Of a stretch of DNA of 11,071 nt, positions 1 to 11,071 are shown one piece after another. Origin of the DNA: a virus (Duplodnaviria; Heunggongvirae; Uroviricota; Caudoviricetes). The translations under genes were made by a program, and so were the position numbers. Location: the IMG/VR virus record IMGVR_UViG_2778261676_000005; one strand, written 5' to 3'. A model generated the notes under the pieces. It saw nothing but the letters and a program-made list of their open reading frames with translations. It did not search any database and was not told where the DNA came from. Numbering within the stretch: position 1 is the stretch's first letter; every line of letters begins with the position of its first letter.

Positions 1-1053
1 TTACGGGGTAATGCCAACCGCTGCCGCCACTTTGTCGCCACTTGGCAGCGTTGCCAGAGGATTGAAACGGAGCGCCGTTTCCAGATGATCCGGTGCCAGA
101 TGAGCGTAACGCATAGTCATTTTTATATCGTGATGTCCGAGGATTTTTTGCAAAGCAAGGATATTTCCACCCGACATCATGAAATGCGCCGCAAACGTAT
201 GGCGCAGAACGTGTGTCAGTTGACCGCGAGGGAGCACGATTGACGTTTTTTCCATCACGGATAAAAATTGAAAATAGCAGTCTGTGAAGAAATTGAACCC
301 ATCAAGCGCCATGATCTCTTCATAAAGCTCTTTACTGATAGGGATGCTTCTGTTTTTCTTCCCCTTCGTTCTTACAAAGGTAATTCGGTATTTAGTCACC
401 TGTGATCGGGTAAGGTTTATTGCTTCTCGCCAGCGTGCGCCTGTGCTTAAGCATATCTTGACTACCAGTGCCAGAATTGGGTCCTGACGTTTGCAATCAG
501 CCAGCAGTTCAACAATCTGCTCATGGGTAAGCCATGCCATCTCTTTTTCTGCGATGGTGAATTTTCGCATGTTCTCCAGTGGGTTTGGATACGACCATTC
601 GCCCAGGCGGGATAGTTCGCTAAAAACACTACTTAGATAGCTTTGCTCCAGGTTAATGGTGACCGGGCTTGCTCCTTTCTTCCATTTCTCGCTGAAGTAG
701 ATCTCACCTGTCAGGCGTTTATCTCGATAGTGGGCAAACATTTTAGAGGTGAGATCGGTTGCAAGGGGATTGCCCAGAGCGTCAACCATCAACAGCAATT
801 TATCATAGACATGCTGCCCAGCGGTTAGAGATTTACCATGTAGTTTGAACCATAGCTCAACCACGTCTTTCAGTGTTCGACGATCCACTGATTCTCCCAG
901 CCAGGGCTTTGCTTCGGTTTCTTCCATCGTATGGCGCTCAAAAGCCAGAGCTTCGCCTTTGGTGGCGAATTGTTTACGCACACGACGCCCACTACGTCCG
1001 GCGGGGTAACATTCGCAAAGCCATTTTCCTGTGGTGAGTTTTCGTACTGCCAT
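1..1053 (-). CDS. int: Tyrosine recombinase / phage integrase, P2-186 family
   Basis: The 376-aa ORF resembles P2 integrase along its length, including the C-terminal catalytic region (..HVLRHTFAAHFMMSGGNILALQKILGH..MTMRYAHL). Start placed at ATG 1053 (MAVRKLTTGKW) because GGAGGG lies 7 nt upstream; the ORF-track start at 1131 is probably an upstream extension. Stop is at 1-3. Confidence 0.9.
   Translation of the reverse strand: MAVRKLTTGKWLCECYPAGRSGRRVRKQFATKGEALAFERHTMEETEAKPWLGESVDRRTLKDVVELWFKLHGKSLTAGQHVYDKLLLMVDALGNPLATDLTSKMFAHYRDKRLTGEIYFSEKWKKGASPVTINLEQSYLSSVFSELSRLGEWSYPNPLENMRKFTIAEKEMAWLTHEQIVELLADCKRQDPILALVVKICLSTGARWREAINLTRSQVTKYRITFVRTKGKKNRSIPISKELYEEIMALDGFNFFTDCYFQFLSVMEKTSIVLPRGQLTHVLRHTFAAHFMMSGGNILALQKILGHHDIKMTMRYAHLAPDHLETALRFNPLATLPSGDKVAAAVGITP
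19..40. repeat. Left copy of 22-bp direct repeat cgctgccgccaYtttgtcgcca; candidate attL core
   Basis: Matches 8217-8238 at 21 of 22 positions (c versus t at position 12). It lies in the last codons of int; the other copy abuts the ogr stop, where P2-type attP is expected. Confidence 0.6.
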
Positions 1054-1239
1054 AAAAAATGCCCTCCAATAGAGAGCATTTTTACTGTATGTATAACCAG
1101 TGTCAATGTATGAAATCCTGCGACCATACATCTCACTGAAGCCATAATGAAGTTGGCTATTTTTTGCTATGTGAGTATGTGACTTTTGCGGTTAGCCTGC
1201 GGCTCATTGTTATATTAGGCGTAGATATAAAAGCAAAAT

Positions 1240-1431
1240 TTATCGCGAGTTTTTAGTACAGATTTTTTTTGATTTACTAATAGTTCCATCATTGCAAACG
1301 AACTTTCCATCGGAGGTACAGTGAGAGACACCTCCCTTTTTCCCAGAACAAGGGTAATTTTTAGCATAGGTAGTTAGTGGGTTTAATAACAAAGAGCATG
1401 ATAAAACCACAAAAAATACCTTACCAAGCAT
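1240..1431 (-). CDS. Small secreted cysteine- and lysine-rich protein (63 aa), function unknown
   Basis: Hydrophobic N-terminus with a likely signal-peptidase site after ..TYA; mature part ~40 aa with 4 Cys. Strong SD (GGGAGGAAA) directly after the cI stop, so probably co-translated with cI. Region is visibly AT-rich. Confidence 0.55.
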
Positions 1432-1446
1432 AGTTTCCTCCCGGTA

Positions 1447-2016
1447 TTACCTAACGTACTTAATTGTTAAACTTATAATTTTCCCAATTATTTCAACATC
1501 TTCTATCTTGCACTCGAAGGCTCTGTTTCCACCTTCAACGAAGATTCTTCCACCGGGTAAACGAGTAATGTCGCGGATTGTTATTTCGCCATCAATACTT
1601 ATTACCCATTTACCGTCACGTATATCATCAAATTCTTTATCACAAATAAATTCAGAATTGTTATCTGTGATGACAAAAGGTTTTTTAAACGTAGAGGGTA
1701 GAAATCCCTTATCAAAAATATAAAAACCGTCTTCACGCAAGGCACCATCAGATAATACATATTTAGCAACTTCCATAGTATTTGTATTACCTGAAGTTTG
1801 CTTTGAACCATGTCCGGTTGTGAGCCAATTAAGCGAGGTGCCCGTTTCAAGGGCGCACTGGATTACCCATTCTGCTGGGAATGAGTCACGCATGTAGCGT
1901 GTGGCGAGTGTACTTTTAGAGATTCCTAAATGATCGCACAACGCCTGTCGAGTTTTGAATCCATAAGCTTCTACCATGCGCTCTATAGCGCCTCGTCCGC
2001 CTTTCTCCAAATTCAT
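1447..2016 (-). CDS. cI: CI-type prophage repressor (phage 186 CI family: N-terminal HTH plus C-terminal domain)
   Basis: N-terminus AIERMVEAYGFKTRQALCDHLGISKSTLATRYMRDSFP is typical of the 186 CI HTH domain; ~190 aa as in 186 CI. Divergent from the early operon. ATG 2016 preferred (GGAG 5 nt upstream) over the GTG at 2022 used by the track. Confidence 0.8.
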   Translation of the reverse strand: MNLEKGGRGAIERMVEAYGFKTRQALCDHLGISKSTLATRYMRDSFPAEWVIQCALETGTSLNWLTTGHGSKQTSGNTNTMEVAKYVLSDGALREDGFYIFDKGFLPSTFKKPFVITDNNSEFICDKEFDDIRDGKWVISIDGEITIRDITRLPGGRIFVEGGNRAFECKIEDVEIIGKIISLTIKYVR

Positions 2017-2040
2017 GGTCACTCCAAGTGAACTTTTATC

Positions 2041-2069
2041 TTGACGATTTCACTGTGCGATCGTATGTT
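2041..2069 (+). promoter_or_regulatory. Candidate sigma70 early lytic promoter (pR-like): TTGACG-N17-TATGTT
   Basis: -35 TTGACG at 2041-2046, 17-nt spacer, -10 TATGTT at 2064-2069, pointing at apl/cII. Flanked by inverted hexamers GTGAAC (2030-2035) and GTTCAC (2086-2091) and by two GATC sites. Confidence 0.4.
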
Positions 2070-2141
2070 TATGGTGTTCACAAAATACAAACGATCCGTA
2101 TTCGTCCTGATTAATCATCATTAAACGAGGAATGTTGCATC

Positions 2142-2363
2142 ATGAGACCTAACATTTCAATCACTCTTACCACGCCTCATGTGACTATTGAACGCTATAG
2201 CGAGCTGACAGGGCTGTCCATCGATACCATCAATGACATGTTGGCTGACGGACGCCTTATCCGTCACCGTCTGCGCAAAGATAAAAAACGTGAAAAAGTG
2301 ATGATCAACATAGCAGCCATGACCGTTGATGCGCTTTCAGAATGCAATCTAAACCTTAATTAG
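2142..2363 (+). CDS. apl: Apl/Cox-like small DNA-binding protein (excision control / repressor of lysogenic promoter), assigned by position
   Basis: First gene of the rightward operon opposite cI, 73 aa, basic C-terminus, GAGGAA upstream. Assignment rests on position in the 186-type switch and size, not on recognised sequence motifs. Confidence 0.5.
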
Positions 2364-2395
2364 TTCGATTCTGAAATACATCAGAGGCATTGACC

Positions 2396-2905
2396 ATGTT
2401 TGATTACCAAGTTTCCAAACATCCACATTTTGATGAAGCCTGTCGTGCATTCGCATTGCGCCACAACCTAGTGCAACTGGCAGAACGTGCAGGCATGAAT
2501 GTGCAGATTCTGCGGAACAAGCTGAACCCAGCTCAACCTCATTTATTAACCGCACCAGAAATCTGGTTGCTTACCGATCTGACTGAAGATTCAACGCTGG
2601 TAGATGGCTTTCTGGCACAGATTCACTGCCTGCCATGTGTACCGATTAATGAGGTGGCAAAAGAGAAACTGCCGCATTACGTCATGAGTGCAACTGCAGA
2701 GATAGGGCGTGTCGCGGCAGGTGCGGTTTCTGGCGATGTAAAAACCAGTGCAGGCCGTCGTGATGCGATCAGCAGCATTAACTCTGTTACACGACTGATG
2801 GCGCTGGCTGCTGTTTCATTGCAGGCCCGTTTACAGGCTAATCCTGCGATGGCGAGTGCAGTTGATACCGTGACTGGCCTCGGTGCTTCATTCGGTTTGC
2901 TGTGA
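2396..2905 (+). CDS. cII: CII-like lysogeny establishment regulator (phage 186 CII family)
   Basis: Resembles 186 CII from the second Met ([20 protein letters not shown]..), and is 169 aa from that Met, the same length as 186 CII. AGAGG lies 8 nt upstream of ATG 2396. Confidence 0.8.
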
Positions 2906-2912
2906 GGTGCTT

Positions 2913-3113
2913 ATGCTGACGAAAGAACCATCATTTGCATCGCTGCTGGTAAAACAAAGTCCGGCAATGCACTACGGTCACGGCTGGATCATGGGTGAGG
3001 ATGGTAAACGCTGGCATCCGTGCCGTTCACAAGATGAATTGCTGGCAGAACTATCTACGAAAAAACGGGGGAACAAATGGCTATTGAAGGCGCTGCGGCG
3101 ACTGTTCCATTAA
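2913..3113 (+). CDS. Small early protein, unknown function (positional equivalent of 186 fil)
   Basis: ATG 2913 preceded by GTGAGGTG; 66 aa; follows cII in the same operon. No motif recognised. Confidence 0.45.
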   Translation: MLTKEPSFASLLVKQSPAMHYGHGWIMGEDGKRWHPCRSQDELLAELSTKKRGNKWLLKALRRLFH

Positions 3114-3418
3114 GACCCGGTGAACGCCTGAATGGACTTAATCATATTGCGGAGTTAAGGGCGAAAGTTTTTGGTTTGAATATTGAGTCAGAGCTTGAGC
3201 GGTTTATTAAAGATATGCGTGATCCTCGGGATATCAATAATGAACAAAATAAACGGGCACTGGCTGCCATATTCTTTATGGCAAAAATTCCAGCTGAACG
3301 TCATAGCATCAGCATTAATGAGCTGACCACTGACGAAAAGCGGGAGTTGATTAAAGCAATGAATCATTTTCGTGCAGTGGTGAGCTTATTTCCCAGACGG
3401 CTAACCATGCCGAATTAA
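3077..3418 (+). CDS. Early protein, unknown function (113 aa)
   Basis: ATG 3077 preceded by GGGGGAA; overlaps the upstream ORF by 37 nt in another frame. No motif recognised. Confidence 0.45.
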   Translation: MAIEGAAATVPLRPGERLNGLNHIAELRAKVFGLNIESELERFIKDMRDPRDINNEQNKRALAAIFFMAKIPAERHSISINELTTDEKRELIKAMNHFRAVVSLFPRRLTMPN

Positions 3419-3485
3419 CCAACTAATGAAATTAATGGCGTAAACCCGCCGGGCATCCCTTTATCTAAATTCAGGAGAATTGCTT

Positions 3486-3719
3486 ATGCGTAATATTGAA
3501 ACCCTCACGACCAAAACCGGACCGGATGATGCAGGTCTTAATCTTTTACTGACAGAAGCTCGTCTGGAAGAACGCCGGGCAAGGGCTGAAGCAATGGCTG
3601 CTCGCCTCGATAGCCTGGCGTGTCATATCACCTCCCGCCAGCTAAACCACGTCGAAGCGGCAGAACTGCTGCGTGTGACTGCTGAAGCAATCCAGAACGA
3701 AGCGCAGGAGATCCACTGA
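3486..3719 (+). CDS. Small early protein, unknown function (77 aa)
   Basis: ATG 3486 with AGGAG 8 nt upstream (the track start at 3480 is a TTG). Its stop overlaps the next start (TGATG). Confidence 0.5.
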   Translation: MRNIETLTTKTGPDDAGLNLLLTEARLEERRARAEAMAARLDSLACHITSRQLNHVEAAELLRVTAEAIQNEAQEIH

Positions 3720-3946
3720 TGGCTGATGCAATGGATCTCGTACAGCAGCGCGTTGAAGAAGAACGCCAACGCCATATCCGTGCTGCCCGTGCCAAAACGC
3801 CGGGCGTGTCCCGCGTGCTTTGCGTTGAGTGTGAAGCGCCAATTCCGCCAGCACGCCGCCGTGCCATTCCGGGTGTGCAGCTTTGCATTACCTGTCAGGA
3901 AATCGCAGAGCTGAAAGGCAAACATTACAACGGAGGTGCTGTATGA
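3719..3946 (+). CDS. TraR/DksA-family C4 zinc-finger protein (P2 orf82-like)
   Basis: CVECEAPIPPARRRAIPGVQLCITCQ is a CxxC...CxxC finger with the basic spacer typical of phage TraR-like proteins. Stop overlaps the dam start (ATGA). Confidence 0.75.
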   Translation: MADAMDLVQQRVEEERQRHIRAARAKTPGVSRVLCVECEAPIPPARRRAIPGVQLCITCQEIAELKGKHYNGGAV

Positions 3947-4800
3947 GCACCATCCTGAAATGGGCAGGAAATAAAACCGCCATAATGTCCGAACTGAAAA
4001 AGCATCTTCCTGCTGGCCCGCGACTGGTTGAACCTTTCGCGGGTTCCTGTGCAGTGATGATGGAGACGGATTATCCCAGCTATCTTGTTGCGGATATTAA
4101 TCCTGATTTAATCAACCTCTATAAAAAGGTTGCTGCTGATTGTGAGGCGTTTATATCTCGTGCCAGAGCTTTATTTGAGGAAGCAAACAGGGAGGTGGCT
4201 TATTACAACATAAGGCAGGAGTTTAATTACTCCACTGAAATTACTGATTTCATGAAAGCGGTATATTTCCTGTATCTCAATCGTCACGGTTACCGTGGTT
4301 TATGTCGCTATAACAAGAGCGGGAATTTCAACATTCCCTACGGTAATTATAAAAATCCGTATTTCCCTGAAAAAGAAATTCGCGCATTTGCAGAAAAAGC
4401 CCAGCGAGCAACGTTTATCTGCGCCAGCTTTGATGAAACGCTGGCGATGTTGAAGGCGGGGGATGTGGTGTATTGCGATCCGCCGTATGACGGTACGTTT
4501 TCCGGCTATCACACTGATGGTTTCACTGAAGATGACCAGTATCACCTGGCATCCGTTCTTGAACATCGGTCATCAGAAGGACATCCGGTCATTGTTTCTA
4601 ACAGTGACACATCCCTGATCCGTTCGTTGTATCGCAATTTCACCCACCACTACATCAAAGCAAAACGCAGCATCGGTGTGGCAGCTGGCGAGGGTAAATC
4701 AGCAACAGAAATCATTGCTGTTTCCGGGCCGCGCTGCTGGGTGGGATTTGATTATTCGCGTGGCGTGGACAGTTCTGCCGTGTACGGAGTACGTGCATGA
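3943..4800 (+). CDS. dam: DNA adenine methyltransferase, Dam-like (N6-adenine class)
   Basis: N-terminus [11 protein letters not shown] and motif FAGSCAV, plus the catalytic DPPY motif ([11 protein letters not shown]). ATG 3943 follows GGAGG; the longer track ORF from 3883 is an upstream extension. Confidence 0.85.
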
Positions 4801-6359
4801 GTCATGCCGATATGAACAACTGCTGCGGCTTTAACGAGTCTGCCGCAGCATTCTCATGGAACAGCCCGAAAAAGGCCATTAACCCTTATCTGGACCCGGC
4901 GGAAGTTGCGCCGGTTTCTGCGCTTTCAAACCTGATCACTCTGTACGCTGCCGATAACGAGCAGGAACAACTGCGCCGCGAGGCACTGAGTGATCAGGTC
5001 TGGGAGCGTTATTTCTTTAATGAATCCCGTGATCCTGTCCAGCGCGAAATGGAGCAGGATAAGCTAATTAGCCGGGCAAAGCTGGCGCATGAGCAGCAGC
5101 GTTTTAATCCGGACATGGTCATTCTGGCGGATGTCAACGCCCAGCCTTCCCATATCAGCAAGCCGCTGATGCAACGTATTGAATACTTCAGCAGCCTGGG
5201 CAGGCCAAAGGCTTATTCCCGCTATTTACGTGAGACGATTAAGCCATGTCTGGAACGACTGGAGCATGTACGCGACAGTCAGCTATCTGCATCTTTTCGC
5301 TTTATGGCAAGCCATGAAGGGCTGGACGGCCTGCTGATCTTGCCTGAAATGAGTCAGGATCAGGTGAAACGCCTGTCCACCCTGGTAGCTGCGCATATGA
5401 GTATGTGCCTTGATGCAGCTTGTGGTGATTTGTATGCCACCGATGACGTTAAGCCAGAAGAAATCCGCAAGACATGGGAAAGGGTGGCAGCAGAAACCCT
5501 GCGACTGGATGTCATCCCACCTGCGTTTGAGCAACTCCGCCGGAAAAGAAACCGCCGTAAACCCGTGCCCTATGAACTCATTCCGGGTTCGCTGGCGCGT
5601 ATGTTGTGCGCCGACTGGTGGTATCGGAAATTATGGAAGATGCGTTGCGAATGGCGGGAAGAGCAGTTGCGCGCTGTCTGCCTGGTCAGCAAAAAAGCAT
5701 CTCCCTATGTCAGCTATGAAGCTGTGATGCATAAACGTGAGCAGCGCCGTAAGTCGCTGGAGTTTTTTCGTTCTCATGAACTGGTGAACGAAGATGGCGA
5801 CACGCTGGATATGGAAGACGTGGTAAACGCCAGCAGCAGCAACCCTGCGCATCGCCGCAATGAGATGATGGCCTGTGTTAAAGGTCTGGAGCTTATCGCG
5901 GAAATGCGCGGTGACTGCGCCGTTTTCTACACCATCACCTGTCCGTCACGTTTCCATTCCACGCTAAATAACGGCAGGCCCAACCCGACTTGGACAAATG
6001 CGACGGTAAGACAAAGCAGTGATTATCTGGTCGGCATGTTTGCTGCATTTCGTAAGGCGATGTACAAAGCCGGATTGCGCTGGTATGGCGTGCGGGTGGC
6101 TGAGCCGCATCATGACGGTACAGTTCACTGGCACCTGTTGTGTTTTATGCGCAAAAAAGATCGCCGCGCCATTACTGCTTTGTTGCGTAAGTTTGCCATT
6201 CGTGAAGACCGTGAGGAGCTGGGTAATAACACAGGACCACGCTTTAAGTCTGAGCTGATACCGGGGAAGTGCAGGCCGTGGAGCTTGTGGTGCGTGGACG
6301 TCACAAAGAAGTGGATTCCGGCGAGTGGAAGACGGGCGAAAGCAACACCACCAAAGTGA
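4797..6359 (+). pseudogene. A: Replication initiation protein gpA (rolling-circle HUH endonuclease), 3'-truncated
   Basis: Resembles P2 gpA through the HUH motif ([16 protein letters not shown]). The ORF then ends after a short tail that is the out-of-frame reading of the tail-tube-like fragment. At 520 aa it is short of the ~760 aa I recall for P2 gpA. Confidence 0.7.
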
Positions 6360-6490
6360 CCAGTACCAACAGCTACGCGAAGCTGACCATCAATGGTGAG
6401 GTGCTCTATGAACTGGACCTTATCAACATGGTGGAAATTGTGGACGGTGTGGACCTGATGGAAGCGCACCGCAACGCCCTCGGCCTCTGA
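6263..6490 (+). pseudogene. C-terminal fragment of a tail tube (gpFII-like) gene lacking its 5' part
   Basis: Frame-2 translation ..[69 protein letters not shown] resembles tail-tube C-termini and sits directly upstream of E, where FII lies in P2. No plausible start or N-terminal region. Confidence 0.45.
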
Positions 6491-6544
6491 TGTATCTGAA
6501 CGGCGCGGGATACCGCGCCAGAACCCAATTTACAGGACAACAAA

Positions 6545-6847
6545 ATGAGCGATAAGCAGACTGAAAAGACCATTCAACTGGATACCCCCATCATGCGCGG
6601 TAAAACAGAAATTACCGAAATTGTGTTGCGTAAACCGCAGTCTGGTGCGCTGCGCGGCACACGCCTGCAGGCCATTATGGATATGGATGTGAACGCGATG
6701 ATGACCGTGATCCCCCGCATCTCCAGTCCGGCACTGACTGCACAGGAAATCGCAGAGATGGACCCGGCAGATCTCACCGCTATGTCGGTTGAGGTTGTCA
6801 CTTTTTTGTTGAAGAAGTCGGTGCTTGCCGGTTTACCGACAGCCTGA
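6545..6847 (+). CDS. E: Tail assembly chaperone gpE
   Basis: 100-aa protein with gpE-like sequence (TIQLDTPIMRGKTEITEIVLRKPQSGALRG); slippery heptamer TTTTTTG near the 3' end; immediately upstream of the tape-measure start. Confidence 0.75.
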   Translation: MSDKQTEKTIQLDTPIMRGKTEITEIVLRKPQSGALRGTRLQAIMDMDVNAMMTVIPRISSPALTAQEIAEMDPADLTAMSVEVVTFLLKKSVLAGLPTA

Positions 6848-6981
6848 CGGTTGACGATCTGGTGGCAGATATCGCCACCATTTTTCACTGGCCGCCATCC
6901 GTTACTGACGTTATGCCGCTGACCGAAGTGCTGGAATGGCGGTATAAAGCGATTCAGAGATGCGGGGCCAACGATGAGTGA
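6545..6981 (+). CDS. gpE+E' frameshift fusion (programmed -1 frameshift, P2 E/E' and lambda G/GT type)
   Basis: From T TTT TTG at 6802-6808 the -1 frame is open to TGA at 6979-6981, reading ..GACRFTDSLTVDDLVADIATIFHWPPSVTDVMPLTEVLEWRYKAIQRCGANDE. It ends overlapping the T start at 6974, as in P2. Confidence 0.6.
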
Positions 6982-7549
6982 TAACAACCTGCGCCTGCAG
7001 GTCATTCTTAATGCGGTTGACAAACTCACCCGCCCATTCCGTGCTGCACAGGCCAGTTCGAAAGAGCTGGCTGGCGCAATCAGAAACTCCCGTGACGCAT
7101 TAAAGCAACTCAATCAGGCGGGTAACAGCCTGGAAAAATTTCGCAAGCTGCAGGCTGATAACAAGAAGTTAGGCGACAGGCTGAACTATGCCAGACAGAA
7201 GGCTAATTTGCTTAGCTCTGAGCTGGAGGCGATGGAGCAACCATCACAAAGGCATTTTGTGGCTTTAGGTCGGCAAACGCTGGCAGTCCAACGCCTGGAA
7301 GAACAACAAAAATATTTGCAGAAGCAAACGGCGCTTGTGCGTGCTGAACTGTACCGGGCGGGAATTTCTGCGAAAGATGATGCGGGAGCAACTGCCCGTT
7401 TAGCCCGTGAAACATCACGTTATAACCAGGAACTTTCGAAACAGGAGGCGCGGCTGAAGCGACTGGGGGAAGCTCAGCGCAGGATGAATGCAGCGCGTGC
7501 CAGTTACCCGCGAACCCGCGAAGAAAGAAAGCACTACGGTGAAGCGTAA
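6974..7549 (+). pseudogene. T: Tail tape measure protein gpT, N-terminal fragment (~170 aa of an expected ~800)
   Basis: N-terminus MSDNNLRLQVILNAVDKLTRPF with coiled-coil sequence is typical of P2-family tape measure proteins. The ORF ends after 191 aa and overlaps the gpD-fragment frame. Confidence 0.7.
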
Positions 7550-7907
7550 GCGCAGGACTAAGAAGCAGAAGAAAGAGCCGGAAGCGAAGCAGGGCGATTA
7601 CCTGGTGGGGACGGATGAAAACGTGCTGGTACTTAATCGCACTTATGCCAACCGGAGCAACGCCGAACGAGCGGCAAAAATGCAGTGGGAACGCCTGCAA
7701 CGCGGCGTTGCGTCATTCTCGCTACAACTGGCGGAAGGGCGGGCAGATCTCTACACGGAAATGCCAGTGAAAGTCAGTGGCTTTAAACAGCCGATAGATG
7801 ATGCGGAATGGACCATTACGACTCTGACACATACTGTCAGCCCGGATAACGGTTTTACAACCAGTATTGAACTCGAAGTGAAGATTGATGATTTCGAAAT
7901 GGAATGA
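7488..7907 (+). pseudogene. D: Tail protein gpD, C-terminal fragment
   Basis: ..YANRSNAERAAKMQWERLQRGVASFSLQLAEGRADLYTEMPVKVSGFKQPIDDAEWTITTLTHTVSPDNGFTTSIELEVK matches the C-terminal ~120 aa of P2 gpD. No N-terminal two thirds and no gpU gene. Sits directly upstream of ogr as in P2. Confidence 0.8.
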
Positions 7908-7997
7908 TTCTTCGCAATGGAGAACTTTTAAGTTTGCAAAATGGAATAATAAGGTATCATTATTGTGAATTTAGCAAAAATGGGGAGAACTCGAAAA

Positions 7998-8216
7998 ATG
8001 ATGATTTGCCCACTGTGTGGAAGTGCCGCCCATACTCGCAGCAGTTTTCAGGTATCTTCATTGACCAAAGAGCGTTACAACCAGTGCCAGAACATTAACT
8101 GCAGCCATACTTTTGTTACCCATGAAACTTTTGTTCGTTCGATTGCAACGCCAAAAGAGTCAAATCCGGTTCAGCCGCATCCAATGAAATCAGGACAGGT
8201 GGCGCTCTCTCTTTGA
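7998..8216 (+). CDS. ogr: Late gene transcription activator Ogr (zinc finger)
   Basis: MMICPLCGSAAHTRSS...ERYNQCQNINCSHTF...PHPMKSGQ resembles P2 Ogr (Cys4 finger); 72 aa from ATG 7998, as in P2. GGGGAGAA upstream. Confidence 0.9.
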   Translation: MMICPLCGSAAHTRSSFQVSSLTKERYNQCQNINCSHTFVTHETFVRSIATPKESNPVQPHPMKSGQVALSL

Positions 8217-8238
8217 CGCTGCCGCCATTTTGTCGCCA
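8217..8238. repeat. Right copy of the 22-bp direct repeat; candidate attR core
   Basis: cgctgccgccattttgtcgcca starts on the nucleotide after the ogr stop and matches 19-40 with one mismatch. Confidence 0.6.
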
Positions 8239-8296
8239 TCGTTAAAAAGCAGTGCTTCTAACATCATGATTTTAAAAGGCATAAATTTCAGACAAC

Positions 8297-8339
8297 AAAA
8301 AACCCATCAACCTTGAACCGAAATGGCGGGGTTGATGGG
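8297..8339 (-). terminator. Candidate intrinsic terminator for ybjL (read on the minus strand)
   Basis: Perfect 10-bp arms CCCATCAACC (8303-8312) and GGTTGATGGG (8330-8339), with an inner CCG/CGG pair, followed on the minus strand by a U-run (plus-strand A-run 8297-8302). About 110 nt downstream of the ybjL stop, and the loop is large, so confidence is modest. Confidence 0.35.
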
Positions 8340-8451
8340 CTCCACAAAATGGGGACATCAAAGAAAAGCAGTGGCACTAATTAAGACTGATGCCCTGCGG
8401 AAAAGTTCTGCGGTTGTGCAAAAAAATTTCATTTTCAGGGCAACTTCAGTT

Positions 8452-10137
8452 TTATCCTAATCCTGGCCATACCATGACGATGATTGTCCCTGCCAGCGTC
8501 AGCAGGACGTTGGCGATTGCATAGGTGCCCGCATAGCCCAGCGCCGGGATGTTACTGCGAGCTGTATCACTGATGATCTCCATTGCCGGCGCGCAGGTAC
8601 GTGCGCCCATCATTGCGCCGAACAACAGCGCGCGGTTCATTCGCAATACATAAGCACCGAACAAGAAACAGATAACCACGGGCACCAGACTGACAATCAA
8701 TCCGGCAATCAACATCTGACCGCCAATCGCGCCCAGGCCGTTATTAATACCGCTACCGGCGCTCAGACCAACGCCTGCCATAAACACCATCAAGCCGAAC
8801 TCTTTCACCATGCTTAATGCACCCTGCGGAATGTAACCGAAGGTCGGGTGGTTAGCACGCATAAAGCCCAGCATAATTCCGGCGAATAACAACCCGGCAG
8901 CGTTCCCCATGCCGAAACTGAATGTGCTGAACTGGAAGGTGATCATCCCGATCATCAGCCCAATAACAAAGAAGGCGCAGAATGCCAGCAGGTCAGTGAC
9001 CTGGCTGTGAATCGAGATAAAGCCGATGCGATCGGCGATGGTTTTTACGCGGCGGGCATCGCCGCTGACTTGTAAAACGTCACCTTTGTTAAGCACGACG
9101 TTGTCATCTATCGGCATCTCAATCTGGCTACGAATGACGCGGTTAAGGAAGCAACCGTGATCGGTCAACTTCAGTTGTGCGAGACGTTTACCTACAGCGT
9201 TATGGTTTTTAACGACCACTTCTTCAGTGACGATACGCATGTCGAGAAGGTCACGATCGAAAACTTCTTTACCGTTACGGAAGCTGGGATCGAGTCGGGC
9301 ATGGGCGTCGGGATAGCCTACCAACGCTATTTCATCGCCCATTTGTAGCACGGCATCACCGTCTGGATTTGCCAGAATCCCGTTACGTCGAATACGTTCA
9401 ATGTAGCAGCCGGTTTGTCGATAAATACCCAGTTCACGCAGATTTTTGCCGTCGGTCCAGGCCACCAGTTCCGGGCCGACGCGATAGGCGCGGATCACCG
9501 GTAAATAAACCTTACGGTTGGCATCAGTGTCCAGGCCACGTTCGCGGGCGATTTGCTGGGCGCTGGTCTGTAAGTCCTGATGCTGCAATTTCGGCAAGTA
9601 ACGCGCACCAACAATCAAACTCACCAGACCGATTAAATAGGTTAAGGCATACCCGAGGCTCAGATTATCCAGTGCCAGTGAGAGCTGCCTGCTTTCCATG
9701 CCGGAATGACGCAGTGTATCGCCAGCACCGACCAGAACCGGTGTCGACGTCATAGAGCCTGCTAACATACCGGCCGTCAGGCCAATATCCCAGCCAAACA
9801 GCTTACCTAACCCTAAGGCGATCACCAGCGCACTGCCAACCATCACCAGTGCTAACATTAGGTAATTTTTCCCATCGCGAAAAAAAATGGAAAAAAAGTT
9901 CGGTCCGGCTTCGACCCCGACGCAGAAAATAAACAGCATAAAGCCAAGATTAAGCGCATCGGTGTTAATGCTGAAATGTTGTTGGCCTAATAACAGCGAT
10001 ACGACTAAAACGCCAATGGAATTACCCAGTTGGATCGAACCAAGTCGTAACTTTCCGAGACATAGCCCAAGCGCGAGGACCACAAATAATAACAGAATGT
10101 AATTCCCATTTAACAATTCGGCGACGTTTATATTCAC
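8452..10137 (-). CDS. ybjL: Putative transport protein YbjL (AAE family)
   Basis: 561-aa polytopic membrane protein; N-terminus [33 protein letters not shown] and length match E. coli YbjL as I recall it. Confidence 0.9.
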
Positions 10138-10406
10138 GGAGGCTAACTTCTTGTTTACTAGTAAGCTGTTGAAAGAAATGGTAATTTACGATAATGTTTT
10201 TTACCAGAATTCAGGGCGCAGATTCATTCAGCGCACCTAAACGATAGTAAAGTAACAATATATTTTACTAGTGTAATCACATTAGGTATCAACGGCTATA
10301 TGAATTGCGTTGGCCTATATTAGCATGGAATGCGAAGCGGCTTTATCTTACTGAACGCCACACTGGCGAAAAATGTGTTCGATAGACGCAGTGTCAGGAG
10401 GAACGA

Positions 10407-10784
10407 GTGAAACATAAACAACGTTGGGCGGGGGCAATCTGCTGTTTTGTCCTCTTCATTGTGGTGTGCCTTTTTCTGGCGACGCACATGAAAGGCGCTT
10501 TTCGGGCTGCCGGGCATCCTGAAATCGGCTTGCTATTTTTCATTCTTCCTGGAGCAGTCGCCAGCTTCTTTTCACAGCGTAGAGAAGTCCTGAAACCTCT
10601 GTTTGGCGCAATGCTGGCGGCACCCTGTTCGATGCTCATTATGCGGCTGTTTTTTTCACCGACGCGCTCATTCTGGCAAGAGCTGGCATGGTTACTAAGC
10701 GCGGTGTTCTGGTGTGCGCTGGGGGCACTGTGTTTCTTATTTATCAGTAGTTTGTTTAAACCACAGCACAGAAAAAATCAGTAA
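10407..10784 (+). CDS. ybjM: Inner membrane protein YbjM
   Basis: 125-aa hydrophobic protein divergent from ybjL and convergent with grxA, as in the E. coli K-12 ybjL-ybjM-grxA locus. Confidence 0.8.
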   Translation: MKHKQRWAGAICCFVLFIVVCLFLATHMKGAFRAAGHPEIGLLFFILPGAVASFFSQRREVLKPLFGAMLAAPCSMLIMRLFFSPTRSFWQELAWLLSAVFWCALGALCFLFISSLFKPQHRKNQ

Positions 10785-10804
10785 AGCCCTCAACGCGAGG
10801 GCTT
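10771..10804. terminator. Hairpin between convergent ybjM and grxA; likely grxA intrinsic terminator
   Basis: 8-bp stem AAGCCCTC / GAGGGCTT with loop aacgc at 10784-10804, 10 nt after the grxA stop. A T-rich run follows on the minus strand; no T-run on the plus strand. Confidence 0.5.
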
Positions 10805-10813
10805 GTCAGACGA

Positions 10814-11071
10814 TCAGGCGTCCAGATTTTCTTTCACCCATGCAGCAAAATCGGTATAGCCGCCGATATGTTGCTGATCGACAAAAATCTGCGGCACGGT
10901 TTCTACGGGTTTACCTGCCTTTTGTTGTAGATCTTCTTTAGTGATCCCTTCCGCACGAATATCTACATACTGATACTGAAAATCATCGCGTTCATTGCTC
11001 AATTTCTCAGCCAGATCTTTTGCACGCACACAGTAAGGGCAACCCGAACGACCAAAAATAACGGTTTGCAT
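10814..11071 (-). CDS. grxA: Glutaredoxin 1
   Basis: 85 aa with CPYC active site (MQTVIFGRSGCPYCVRAKDLAEKL...); matches E. coli GrxA as I recall it. Start codon is at the window edge (11069-11071). Confidence 0.9.
   Translation of the reverse strand: MQTVIFGRSGCPYCVRAKDLAEKLSNERDDFQYQYVDIRAEGITKEDLQQKAGKPVETVPQIFVDQQHIGGYTDFAAWVKENLDA

Follow-up and report, generated by a model that had tools for sequence, protein, structure and literature searches.

The locus described here raises the question whether the AT-rich stretch around a phage repressor gene marks an immunity module that differs in origin from its neighbours, and where such a module begins and ends. The analyzed window comprises 11,071 nt of an E. 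coli chromosome with a deleted prophage between rcdA and ybjL. This prophage is 186-like (Peduoviridae) and the copy in the window is a deletion remnant. A first-pass annotation had noticed by eye that cI, the small ORF behind it and the switch region (1240-2141) are more AT-rich than int, the early operon and the tail fragments, and had proposed a module of different origin that was acquired by exchange. Our analysis indicates that the AT-rich stretch is very probably the variable immunity-plus-cargo region of the 186-like prophage, which is replaced by recombination among related prophages.

On the left, the cassette is flanked by the conserved integrase gene int (1-1053, minus strand; Pfam Int_N and Phage_integrase). 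Its ATG at 1053 corresponds to the start annotated in ATCC 8739 (PGAP CDS, 1053 nt). The conserved segment upstream of int (1054-1113, minus strand) ends at a recurrent left joint (~1111-1113) and contains a sigma-70-like site (TTGACA-17-AAAAAT at 1106 to 1078), which is a match to the consensus only. It is followed by an AT-rich spacer (1114-1239, ~38% GC), which belongs to the variable cargo slot separating int from cI and is unalignable to phages with other cassettes. The next gene, orf63 (1240-1431, minus strand), encodes a small YdcA-family protein of 63 aa (NCBIfam NF007463, phrog_6000). The cI gene (1447-2022, minus strand) consists of a C-terminal oligomerisation domain (1447-1791, aa 76-189, Pfam PF16452) and an N-terminal helix-turn-helix (HTH) domain (1792-2022, Pfam PF07022); the annotated ATG is located at 2016, and the ORF reaches a GTG at 2022. 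The switch region (2023-2141), which harbors candidates for pR and pL, separates cI from an apl/cox-like gene (2142-2363, plus strand) assigned to phrog_575 (Cox-like excisionase and repressor, E = 6e-31). Pfam showed no match for apl or orf63, and the assignments were given by NCBIfam and PHROGs. The apl-cII spacer (2364-2395) ends at a recurrent right joint (2393-2395), directly before the ATG of cII at 2396. The cII gene (2396-2905, plus strand; Pfam PF06892) opens the conserved early operon and flanks the cassette on its right side.

This order matches that of coliphage 186 (Eganvirus ev186), in which int and cI are transcribed leftward and apl-cII-fil and the rest rightward; the correspondence of the divergent cI(-int) and apl-cII operons is based on the ORF map and on family matches compared with annotated 186. 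In both elements CI carries both Pfam domains, and CII (PF06892), Fil, DUF2732 and a TraR-type protein follow. The CI protein of the window matches the HTH profile (Phage_CI_repr) over its full length at residues 11-74 (E = 2.8e-33) and the C-terminal profile (Phage_CI_C) with E = 2e-28, and comparison with the structures of 186 CI gave E = 3e-31 for PDB 2FJR (residues 10-183) and E = 3e-14 for 2FKD. Judged from these matches, the cI product is a 186-type CI repressor with putative roles in repression of pR, immunity and wheel assembly. A pR-like site (TTGACG-17-TATGTT, plus strand) was found at 2041-2069 with 9 of 12 matches, which is similarity at consensus level only. On the minus strand, TTGAAA (2160-2155) and CAACAT (2136-2131) with a spacing of 17, picked by eye as a consensus match, may represent pL; the offset of this candidate from the apl ATG equals that of pL in 186. 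A repeat search over 1000-2500 yielded only short two-copy matches, none of them readable as operators. The differences from 186 are nevertheless considerable, with identities of only 32% for CI, 54% for Int and 69% for CII. In 186, cI abuts int without cargo, whereas the 63-aa ORF and AT-rich spacers lie between them here. The GC dip of 186 is mild (cI 44.9%, C-terminal part 43.1%) compared with 33.9% in the C-terminal domain here, and 186 is integrated at ileY instead of rcdA-ybjL.

The compositional shift is clearly measurable. The interval 1240-2141 has a GC content of 38.9% against a mean of 48.7% for the window and ranks 320th lowest among 10,170 windows of the same length; the lowest of all these windows (37.8%) begins at 1023. 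Recursive segmentation divided the sequence into 1-1051 (48.4% GC), 1052-2437 (39.3%) and 2438-11071 (50.2%), with 1052-2437 as the single low-GC block. The best low-GC interval inside the prophage is 1051-1810 with 35.5% GC. Its likelihood-ratio score of 56.8 was reached by none of 200 first-order Markov simulations (mean 9.4, maximum 23.2). The GC content is 35.4% in orf63 (GC3 31%), 40.1% in cI (GC3 34%) and 37.0% in the switch region, compared with 47.5% in int, 50.6% in cII, 53.2% in replication gene A, 52-53% in the tail fragments and 51.5% in the host gene ybjL. For cI and orf63 together, GC3 is 33%, whereas the remaining ORFs of the prophage have 51% (Fisher p = 5e-8). GC, GC3 and segmentation thus agree with the contrast seen by eye, and the GC profile shows a significant shift. 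Part of the low GC content is trivial, as the switch region and the spacers are intergenic.

The trough is shifted to the left of the first-pass coordinates, since it starts at ~1052, upstream of the int ATG, and not at 1240. It also does not comprise cI as a whole. The N-terminal HTH third of the gene (~1792-2016) has a normal composition with 48.9% GC and a GC3 of 45%, whereas the C-terminal domain, with 33.9% GC and a GC3 of 25.2%, is the core of the AT-rich trough. The description as AT-rich therefore holds for the C-terminal domain and the YdcA-family ORF, but not for the HTH domain.

Low GC content is not restricted to this allele. Alternative cassettes in the same slot are also AT-rich (34-42% GC, flanks 47-50%), and low GC was likewise found in cI homologues of Klebsiella, Enterobacter, Ewingella and Rahnella. 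In the closest cI subfamily, which occurs in several Enterobacterales genera, the C-terminal domain has 32-35% GC at amino acid identities of 49-94%. Because this composition is kept over such a range of identities and genera, it is an old and stable property of the domain. Since all alternative cassettes are AT-rich and the cI relatives found all belong to Enterobacterales, low GC marks the slot and points to no identifiable foreign donor.

Evidence for exchange comes from the comparison with related phages. The flanks 1-1113 (int; 95-97% nt identity) and 2393-6259 (94-96% nt identity) are shared with the Klebsiella phages 4LV2017 and KP12, the E. coli phage 813R9 and others. In the same phages, the region from 1114 to ~1797 has no alignable DNA, and 1797-2392 shows only 57-75% identity (57-62% nt for the switch region in KP12 and 813R9). 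At the protein level, Int, CII, Fil, DUF5347, DUF2732, TraR and Dam are 95-100% identical to 4LV2017, KP12 and 813R9 (Int 99-100%; CII 95-100%, also in ST11-VIM1phi8.4 and RE2010), but CI only 47-56% and Apl 85%. The nearest relatives of backbone and repressor are thus discordant, as expected by the first-pass annotation. The apl gene is ~75% identical at the nucleotide level to that of phages whose cII is 96-100% identical, and by its sequence it is a divergent allele inside the exchanged immunity module and not part of the conserved backbone. Within CI, the HTH domain is 67-75% identical to other cassettes, compared with 34-48% for the C-terminal domain. No close copy of the cassette was found among 50,697 phage records by megablast or by blastn with word size 11; the best similarity was ~70% identity over 110-200 nt, in the cI HTH region only.

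The borders of the variable region are sharp and recur in independent comparisons. On the left, homology to six different loci ends at 1111-1113. On the right, many phages and E. coli genomes begin to match with high identity at 2393-2395, where the identity rises from ~75% to ~96%. A further recurrent joint is located at 1797-1844, and weak homology starts from 2128. The edges in composition coincide with these independently determined joints (1113, ~1800-1850 and 2393). The interval 1240-2141 contains the dip, but the exchanged module is larger, since it extends from ~1113 to 2395 and includes apl. Joints and discordant identities support the proposed exchange, while low GC alone is no proof of origin.

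Some elements recombine the two halves of the cassette in opposite ways. L013 keeps 1100-1900 at 85-99% nt identity but shows only ~72% over 1900-2400; here the cI N-terminal domain is replaced by an allele of ~72% nt identity and the AT-rich block is retained. Conversely, L014 and L016 show backbone-level identity from 1825/1844 onward, and 1113-1824 is unalignable; their CI is 86-92% identical to this CI in the N-domain and 37-39% in the C-domain. In comparison with L008/L009, dS was 0.40 for the cI C-domain and 0.35 for orf63, against 0.06 for the cI N-domain, 0.08-0.13 for apl and 0.17 for cII, with dN/dS values of 0.04-0.12. Such a contrast suggests that the parts coalesce at different times while under purifying selection. 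The raised dS of the AT-rich block need not stem from an older allele alone, as locally more frequent mutation could account for part of it.

The int type of this prophage was detected in 1133 of 5426 E. coli genomes; roughly one in five complete genomes of the species carries the prophage family. The cassette is present in 649-658 genomes; 595 of the 658 hold at least 80% of it, and at least 80% of positions 1-3100 of the window is covered in 622. Five alternative cassettes behind this int type were fetched. Three of them come from E. coli chromosomes, where they lie next to rcdA or occupy the same locus (E2348/69, 98234 and VTB97432v), and two from phage records (4LV2017 and KP12/813R9, the latter also flanked by rcdA). 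For genomes with this int type and without this cassette, inspection covered the fetched elements only, all of which hold other cassettes with the same joints. In E. coli, the cassette is nearly always tied to one int type, and the pattern is mainly one backbone with many cassettes, far more than one cassette on many backbones. Partial cases of the cassette on another background are E2348/69, which keeps cI and apl with different cargo, GPEC1292, in which the cassette lies beside an int with 87.6% nt identity, and L013, which keeps only the AT-rich half.

In other elements at the same chromosomal site, the int-cI slot is occupied by PD-Lambda-1, a KAP NTPase (PDC-S20) or a double-HTH cI, and the neighbouring attL-int slot by DUF4917 (PDC-S21) or a Panacea-domain gene. 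Matches of this sister-cassette cargo to PADLOC models were strong for PD-Lambda-1 (7e-120), PDC-S20 (5e-78) and PDC-S21 (1e-121). In contrast, no PADLOC defence model matched orf63 at E ≤ 1e-3. The orf63 product scored 116.1 bits against the equivalog model NF007463 (YdcA family, PRK10040; cut-off 93), and the identical ORF was named "YdcA family protein" by PGAP in several genomes. It has an N-terminal hydrophobic leader and 4 Cys. The gene is absent from 4LV2017, KP12 and 813R9 and is missing from E2348/69, whose cI is the same. It is a cargo gene (moron) and not an immunity gene. A constant linkage of YdcA-like ORFs to repressor genes was also considered and is ruled out by one Moraxella and one Acinetobacter phage, the only two checked, in which such an ORF is located among structural genes. 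In a literature search for ydcA, none of the titles and abstracts listed dealt with the function of YdcA.

From these data the following model can be proposed. CI, with its HTH and oligomerisation domains, would be transcribed leftward together with the small cargo ORF, as in the 186 switch, and Apl and the CII-led early operon would be transcribed rightward from the promoter region in between. The backbone, with int to the left of the cassette and the genes from cII to gene A to the right, is highly conserved, and the part from ~1113 to 2395 would be swapped among related prophages. Two sub-modules probably recombine independently at the interdomain linker of cI (~1800-1900). The first one would consist of the cI HTH domain, the operators and promoters, and apl. 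It would act as the specificity unit, through which the cassette may define a distinct immunity specificity, and would be of normal GC except for the intergenic switch. The second, with the cI C-terminal domain and the downstream cargo, would correspond to the AT-rich trough from 1052 to ~1810. Low GC would then be a long-standing trait of the slot occupants (repressor C-terminal domains, morons and defence genes), which share one mobile gene pool. It does not signal that the block was imported recently from any AT-rich donor that can be identified.

Alternative explanations have to be weighed against this exchange. The window also has shorter and shallower AT-rich dips of 39-43% GC, at 3100-3500, 4100-4400, 7700-8300 and 9900-10400, which would fit ordinary compositional noise of the prophage. 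Noise has a negligible probability, as the dip is the longest and deepest one, exceeds the maximum of the simulations more than twofold in score, shows the significant GC3 shift and has edges at the homology joints. Another alternative is rapid divergence in place, driven by diversifying selection for immunity specificities and AT-biased mutation without any exchange. The graded homologous alleles found here (Apl, CI N-domain and C-domain with successively lower identity) look like a co-adapted region that diverges fast, as argued by Nilsson et al. (2011; PMC3448106). Nevertheless, we regard this explanation as very unlikely. At joints that recur in unrelated comparisons, sequences go from ~96% identity to unalignable over a stretch of a few bases, gene content varies between cassettes, the reciprocal mosaics of L013 and L014 are impossible by uniform divergence, and the dN/dS values indicate purifying and not diversifying selection.

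A recent, unameliorated import of the AT-rich block from a low-GC donor outside Enterobacterales, e.g., a Pasteurellaceae or Moraxellaceae phage, appears improbable, too. It would agree with the mature part of the orf63 product, which is 74-80% identical to ORFs in Moraxella, Acinetobacter and Haemophilus phages, and with the Haemophilus phage HP2, whose record has ~38% GC in its first 5 kb and which carries an intact, unannotated orf63 homologue directly after cI, i.e., in the same position. However, the CI of HP2 is only 32% identical, the YdcA-like ORF behaves as a free-moving moron in the two phages with structural-gene placement rather than as a component of an imported cI cassette, and the composition of the cI subfamily is old and stable across genera. 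All 19 cI relatives in GTDB contigs (one genome per species) are from Enterobacterales or from contigs that look mis-binned. Among these contigs no low-GC cI donor was found, and low-GC hosts harbor relatives of the small cargo ORF only. Two matches in Bacillota MAGs were rejected as donors, since they are short contigs collinear with enterobacterial 186-like prophages. A further possibility, compatible with exchange, is that low GC is kept by functional selection (H-NS-type silencing or insulation, distal CI operators or looping within cI, or codons for low expression), and composition would then be mute on origin. All slot occupants are AT-rich regardless of gene content, different genera have kept the pattern, CI of 186 binds at a site (FL) within its own gene, and the shift is strongest at synonymous sites (GC3 25%). 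On the other hand, the mild dip of 186 does not fit well, and AT-rich accessory genes are also a generic expectation for a promiscuous mobile gene pool. Overall, we consider such selection conceivable but rather unlikely. Similarly tentative is the idea that 186-type repressors evolve by domain shuffling at the linker and that the AT-richness of the unit of C-domain and cargo (GC3 ~25%) might be actively maintained, e.g., by xenogeneic silencing or distal operator/looping sites, instead of being a relic of origin.

Phage mosaicism of this kind is ordinary and already documented. As in other temperate phages that exchange imm cassettes, a conserved backbone surrounds a sharply bounded, swapped set of repressor, operators and anti-repressor/excisionase with many alternatives. 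Nilsson et al. (2011; PMC3448106) regarded int, repressor and cox/apl as a unit of co-adapted parts, and none of their 31 P2-like phages had a chimeric regulatory region. In contrast, int is uncoupled from cI/apl here, and cI is chimeric at the domain boundary. Now that genomes can be compared in the thousands, such an extension was to be expected and is not surprising. Swapped cargo in the int-cI and attL-int intervals is also in agreement with the accessory and defence hotspots of P2-like prophages (Rousset et al., 2022, PMC9122126; NAR 2026, PMC13586616), of which the minor ones at integrase-att and integrase-primase hold 3% and 8% of systems, respectively (NAR 2026, PMC13586616). Different from these hotspots, the slot here contains only the 63-aa YdcA-family ORF, and the AT-rich block is not all cargo, since it also covers one half of the repressor gene. 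The dip noticed by eye correctly flagged a swappable immunity and cargo slot, which has little import beyond annotation. The module boundaries (~1113, ~1800-1900 and 2395) are useful for immunity-group typing of 186-like prophages and for finding the cargo/defence slot, and the step in composition within cI neatly illustrates how a repressor recombines at the level of its domains, as expected for mosaic phages.

A similar arrangement is present in the Haemophilus phages HP1/HP2 (Hpunavirus), where a 186-type CI of 191 aa is followed by a YdcA-like secreted ORF of ~60 aa, with int further downstream. Apart from its low CI identity, HP2 differs by an extra gene (orf1S) before int, and its fetched region is low in GC throughout, so that the HP2 cassette is not compositionally distinct. 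As a side possibility, the YdcA-like secreted peptide directly after cI in E. coli and Haemophilus P2-like phages may be predicted to be a conserved conversion or exclusion factor that is expressed in the lysogen.

The window from position 1 to about 8280 is a phage 186-type prophage. Its gene order starts with int (1-1053), the 63-aa ORF orf63 (1240-1431) and cI (1447-2016/2022; PF07022 and PF16452), all on the minus strand, followed by an Apl/Cox-like gene (2142-2363; phrog_575) and cII (2396-2905; PF06892). Downstream of cII, fil, the DUF5347, DUF2732 and TraR-type zinc finger genes and dam were found, and beyond dam a truncated replication gene A, tail-gene fragments (6545-7907) and ogr (7965-8216).

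The first-pass annotation had described cI, the small ORF after it and the switch region (together 1240-2141) as an AT-rich immunity cassette, and this was confirmed for each part. The GC content is 35.4% in orf63, 40.1% in cI and 37.0% in the switch (2023-2141), compared to 47.5% in int, 45-57% in the early genes (gene A 53.2%) and 52-53% in the tail fragments. Over 1240-2141 it is 38.9%, against 48.7% window-wide. Unsupervised segmentation revealed a single internal low-GC block (1052-2437, 39.3%), and the best low-GC interval, 1051-1810 with 35.5% GC, reached a likelihood-ratio score of 56.8, whereas 200 Markov-1 simulations gave a mean of 9.4 and a maximum of 23.2. The remaining ORFs of the prophage have a GC3 of 51%, and cI plus orf63 one of 33% (p = 5e-8). 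The shift is most pronounced at third codon positions and so cannot be due to amino-acid composition alone. The boundaries of the interval did not hold: the trough starts at about 1052, upstream of the int ATG, and ends at about 1810 inside cI, where the C-terminal domain (33.9% GC, GC3 25.2%) differs from the N-terminal HTH domain (48.9% GC, GC3 45.3%). Shorter AT-rich dips of 38-44% GC also occur at 3100-3500 (DUF5347), 4100-4400 (inside dam), 7700-8300 (end of gpD, ogr, att) and 9900-10400 (host ybjL-ybjM intergenic region).

The suggested exchange of the cassette is supported by discordant nearest relatives. In a comparison with 50,697 phage records, the int region (1-1111/1113) shows 95-97% identity to the phages 4LV2017, KP12 (Klebsiella) and vB_EcoM-813R9 (E. 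coli), and the region 2128/2393-6259 shows 94-96% identity to the same three and to many other Klebsiella, Salmonella and Escherichia phages. For 1132-2141 no close match was found among these records, the best being stretches of 110-200 nt in the cI HTH region with about 70% identity. Local blastn placed the left joint at 1111-1113; on the right side weak homology (about 75%) starts at 2128 and high identity at 2393-2395, directly before the cII ATG. Int, CII, Fil, DUF5347, DUF2732, TraR and Dam are 95-100% identical at the amino acid level to their counterparts in the three phages, but CI only 47-56% (N-domain 67-75%, C-domain 34-48%), and orf63 is absent from all three at the protein level. 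Apl reaches only 85%, therefore apl belongs to the exchanged module, beyond the right end first proposed. This is in line with phage 186, in which Apl has its binding site in the pR-pL interval.

Two nested units can be distinguished. In an Escherichia sp. locus (L013) the AT-rich block 1100-1900 is retained with 85-99% nucleotide identity (cI C-domain 92% and orf63 98% at the amino acid level), but identity drops to about 72% over 1900-2400 (cI N-domain 81%) and is again 94-99% from cII onward. The converse was observed in uniformly diverged relatives from Klebsiella sp. and Ewingella, which align at 50-1112 and from 1825/1844 on, with no alignment between; their CI is 86-92% identical in the N-domain but 37-39% in the C-domain. 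Compared with two E. coli prophages carrying nominally the same cassette (L008 and L009), synonymous divergence reaches 0.40 for the cI C-domain and 0.35 for orf63; the values for the cI N-domain (0.06), apl (0.08-0.13) and cII (0.17) are lower, and dN/dS is 0.12 or less. These reciprocal mosaics and the contrast in synonymous divergence place a recombination joint at the repressor interdomain linker, where the GC step (about 1800) also lies. The AT-rich trough is thus one exchange unit, comprising the cI C-domain and the downstream cargo, and a second is made up of the HTH domain, switch and apl.

Other E. coli strains share int and the early operon at the same chromosomal site, but differ in the contents between them. 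E2348/69 carries a KAP-family NTPase and a second, double-HTH cI; strain 98234 a 329-aa protein and a 312-aa cI, resembling 4LV2017; and VTB97432v an IS5-disrupted cargo and another cI. Phages KP12 and 813R9 have a PD-Lambda-1 homologue in the int-cI slot. The long CI proteins (307-313 aa) of some sister cassettes (L002:2903-3844, L007:2568-3491) contain two PF07022 HTH domains and one C-terminal domain; in E2348/69 the long cI stands in tandem with a normal 189-aa cI, 90% identical to that of the window. Defence-type cargo in sister int-cI and attL-int slots (L003:5774-7450, L007:1025-2542, L008:1636-2619, L009:1541-2769) includes a PD-Lambda-1 homologue (E = 7e-120), a KAP NTPase (PDC-S20, E = 5e-78), DUF4917 (PDC-S21, E = 1e-121) and a Panacea-domain gene with its partner. 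Among 5426 complete E. coli genomes, 1133 contain this int type and 649-658 the cassette of the window.

The low GC content itself had been read as a sign of different origin. All alternative occupants of the slot are AT-rich (34-42% GC versus 47-50% in the flanks), and cI homologues in one-genome-per-species contigs all belong to Enterobacterales (Escherichia, Klebsiella, Enterobacter, Ewingella, Rahnella, Citrobacter, Tatumella and others). Thus, low GC is a stable property of a flexible slot in this lineage, and it is not traceable to an identifiable donor; composition marks the slot, not a donor. In the subfamily nearest to the cI of the window, a C-domain GC of 32-35% is retained across 49-94% amino acid identity. 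Phage 186, in contrast, has only a mild GC dip and no cargo in its cI-int interval. Of two short GTDB contigs labelled "MAG: Bacillota bacterium", one (L012) has a near-identical copy of this region of the E. coli prophage (about 96% nt) and the other (L018) an enterobacterial-type 186-like prophage with backbone proteins 80-89% identical at the amino acid level; both are most likely mis-binned enterobacterial contigs.

Within the cassette, only orf63 has relatives in low-GC hosts. It encodes a small protein of the YdcA family (NF007463 above cut-off; phrog_6000), and the mature part of this protein shares 74-80% identity with ORFs of Moraxella, Acinetobacter and Haemophilus phages. Haemophilus phage HP2 encodes an intact 60-aa homologue with a signal-peptide-like N-terminus directly after cI (L031:2486-2668, minus strand), which is missing from the RefSeq annotation. 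In the single Moraxella phage and the single Acinetobacter phage checked, the YdcA-like ORF lies amid structural genes. Because of these differing positions, orf63 behaves as a mobile moron. It had no PADLOC match, and a search of the literature found no study of its function.

By homology with phage 186, CI would bind operators at a rightward promoter, for which TTGACG-17-TATGTT (2041-2069) is the best candidate, and would thereby silence the Apl-CII early operon. Transcription of cI, orf63 and perhaps int would come from a leftward promoter that overlaps the start of apl. The candidate for it, TTGAAA-17-CAACAT (minus strand, 2160-2131), lies as far from the apl ATG as pL does in 186. A strong sigma-70-like site, TTGACA-17-AAAAAT (minus strand, 1106-1078; 10/12 matches), lies just upstream of int within the conserved int block, i.e., on the conserved side of the left joint, which suggests that it is retained irrespective of upstream cargo. 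Such a putative promoter could free int expression from dependence on inserted cargo.

Nilsson et al. (2011; PMC3448106) regarded the int-repressor-cox/apl region of P2-like phages as co-adapted; among the 31 phages that they compared, regulatory regions were never chimeric, and recombination was limited to close relatives. Minor defence hotspots in the att-int and int-primase intervals emerged from a 2026 survey covering thousands of P2-like prophages (PMC13586616). Both descriptions fit the present locus, whose mosaicism is of an ordinary and already documented type, in a prophage that is very widespread in E. coli. Two features go beyond the 2011 account, namely that int is uncoupled from cI/apl and that cI is chimeric at the domain level, but both are to be expected when genomes are compared by the thousand.

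E. coli ATCC 8739 carries an intact version at the same rcdA/ybjL site with 98.4% identity to window 1-4718; therefore, the prophage of the window is an internally deleted copy. Gene A homology to related phages ends at 6259/6260, and coverage of the window reaches 80% or more in only 25 of the 5426 genomes. A deletion remnant was noted over 4797-8280. The right end (8281-11071) is the host ybjL-ybjM-grxA region, present with 98-100% identity in essentially all E. coli genomes. A 22-nt direct repeat (21/22 matches; CGCTGCCGCCAYTTTGTCGCCA) occurs within the 3' end of int (19-40) and directly after ogr (8217-8238), and is probably the att core or an Int-binding sequence. Window 1-45 is also matched in the prophage-free E. 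coli genome H253, and the K-12 match begins only at 8281. In the backbone, fil occurs in two variants (201 and 297 nt) diverging at about 3077 (joint about 3077-3079). Dam is only 91% identical at the amino acid level to that of ATCC 8739, compared to 98-100% for neighbouring genes, and ATCC 8739 has an additional 822-nt gene between dam and gene A. The fil break and the dam region (window 3947-4914) are further mosaic joints of the backbone.
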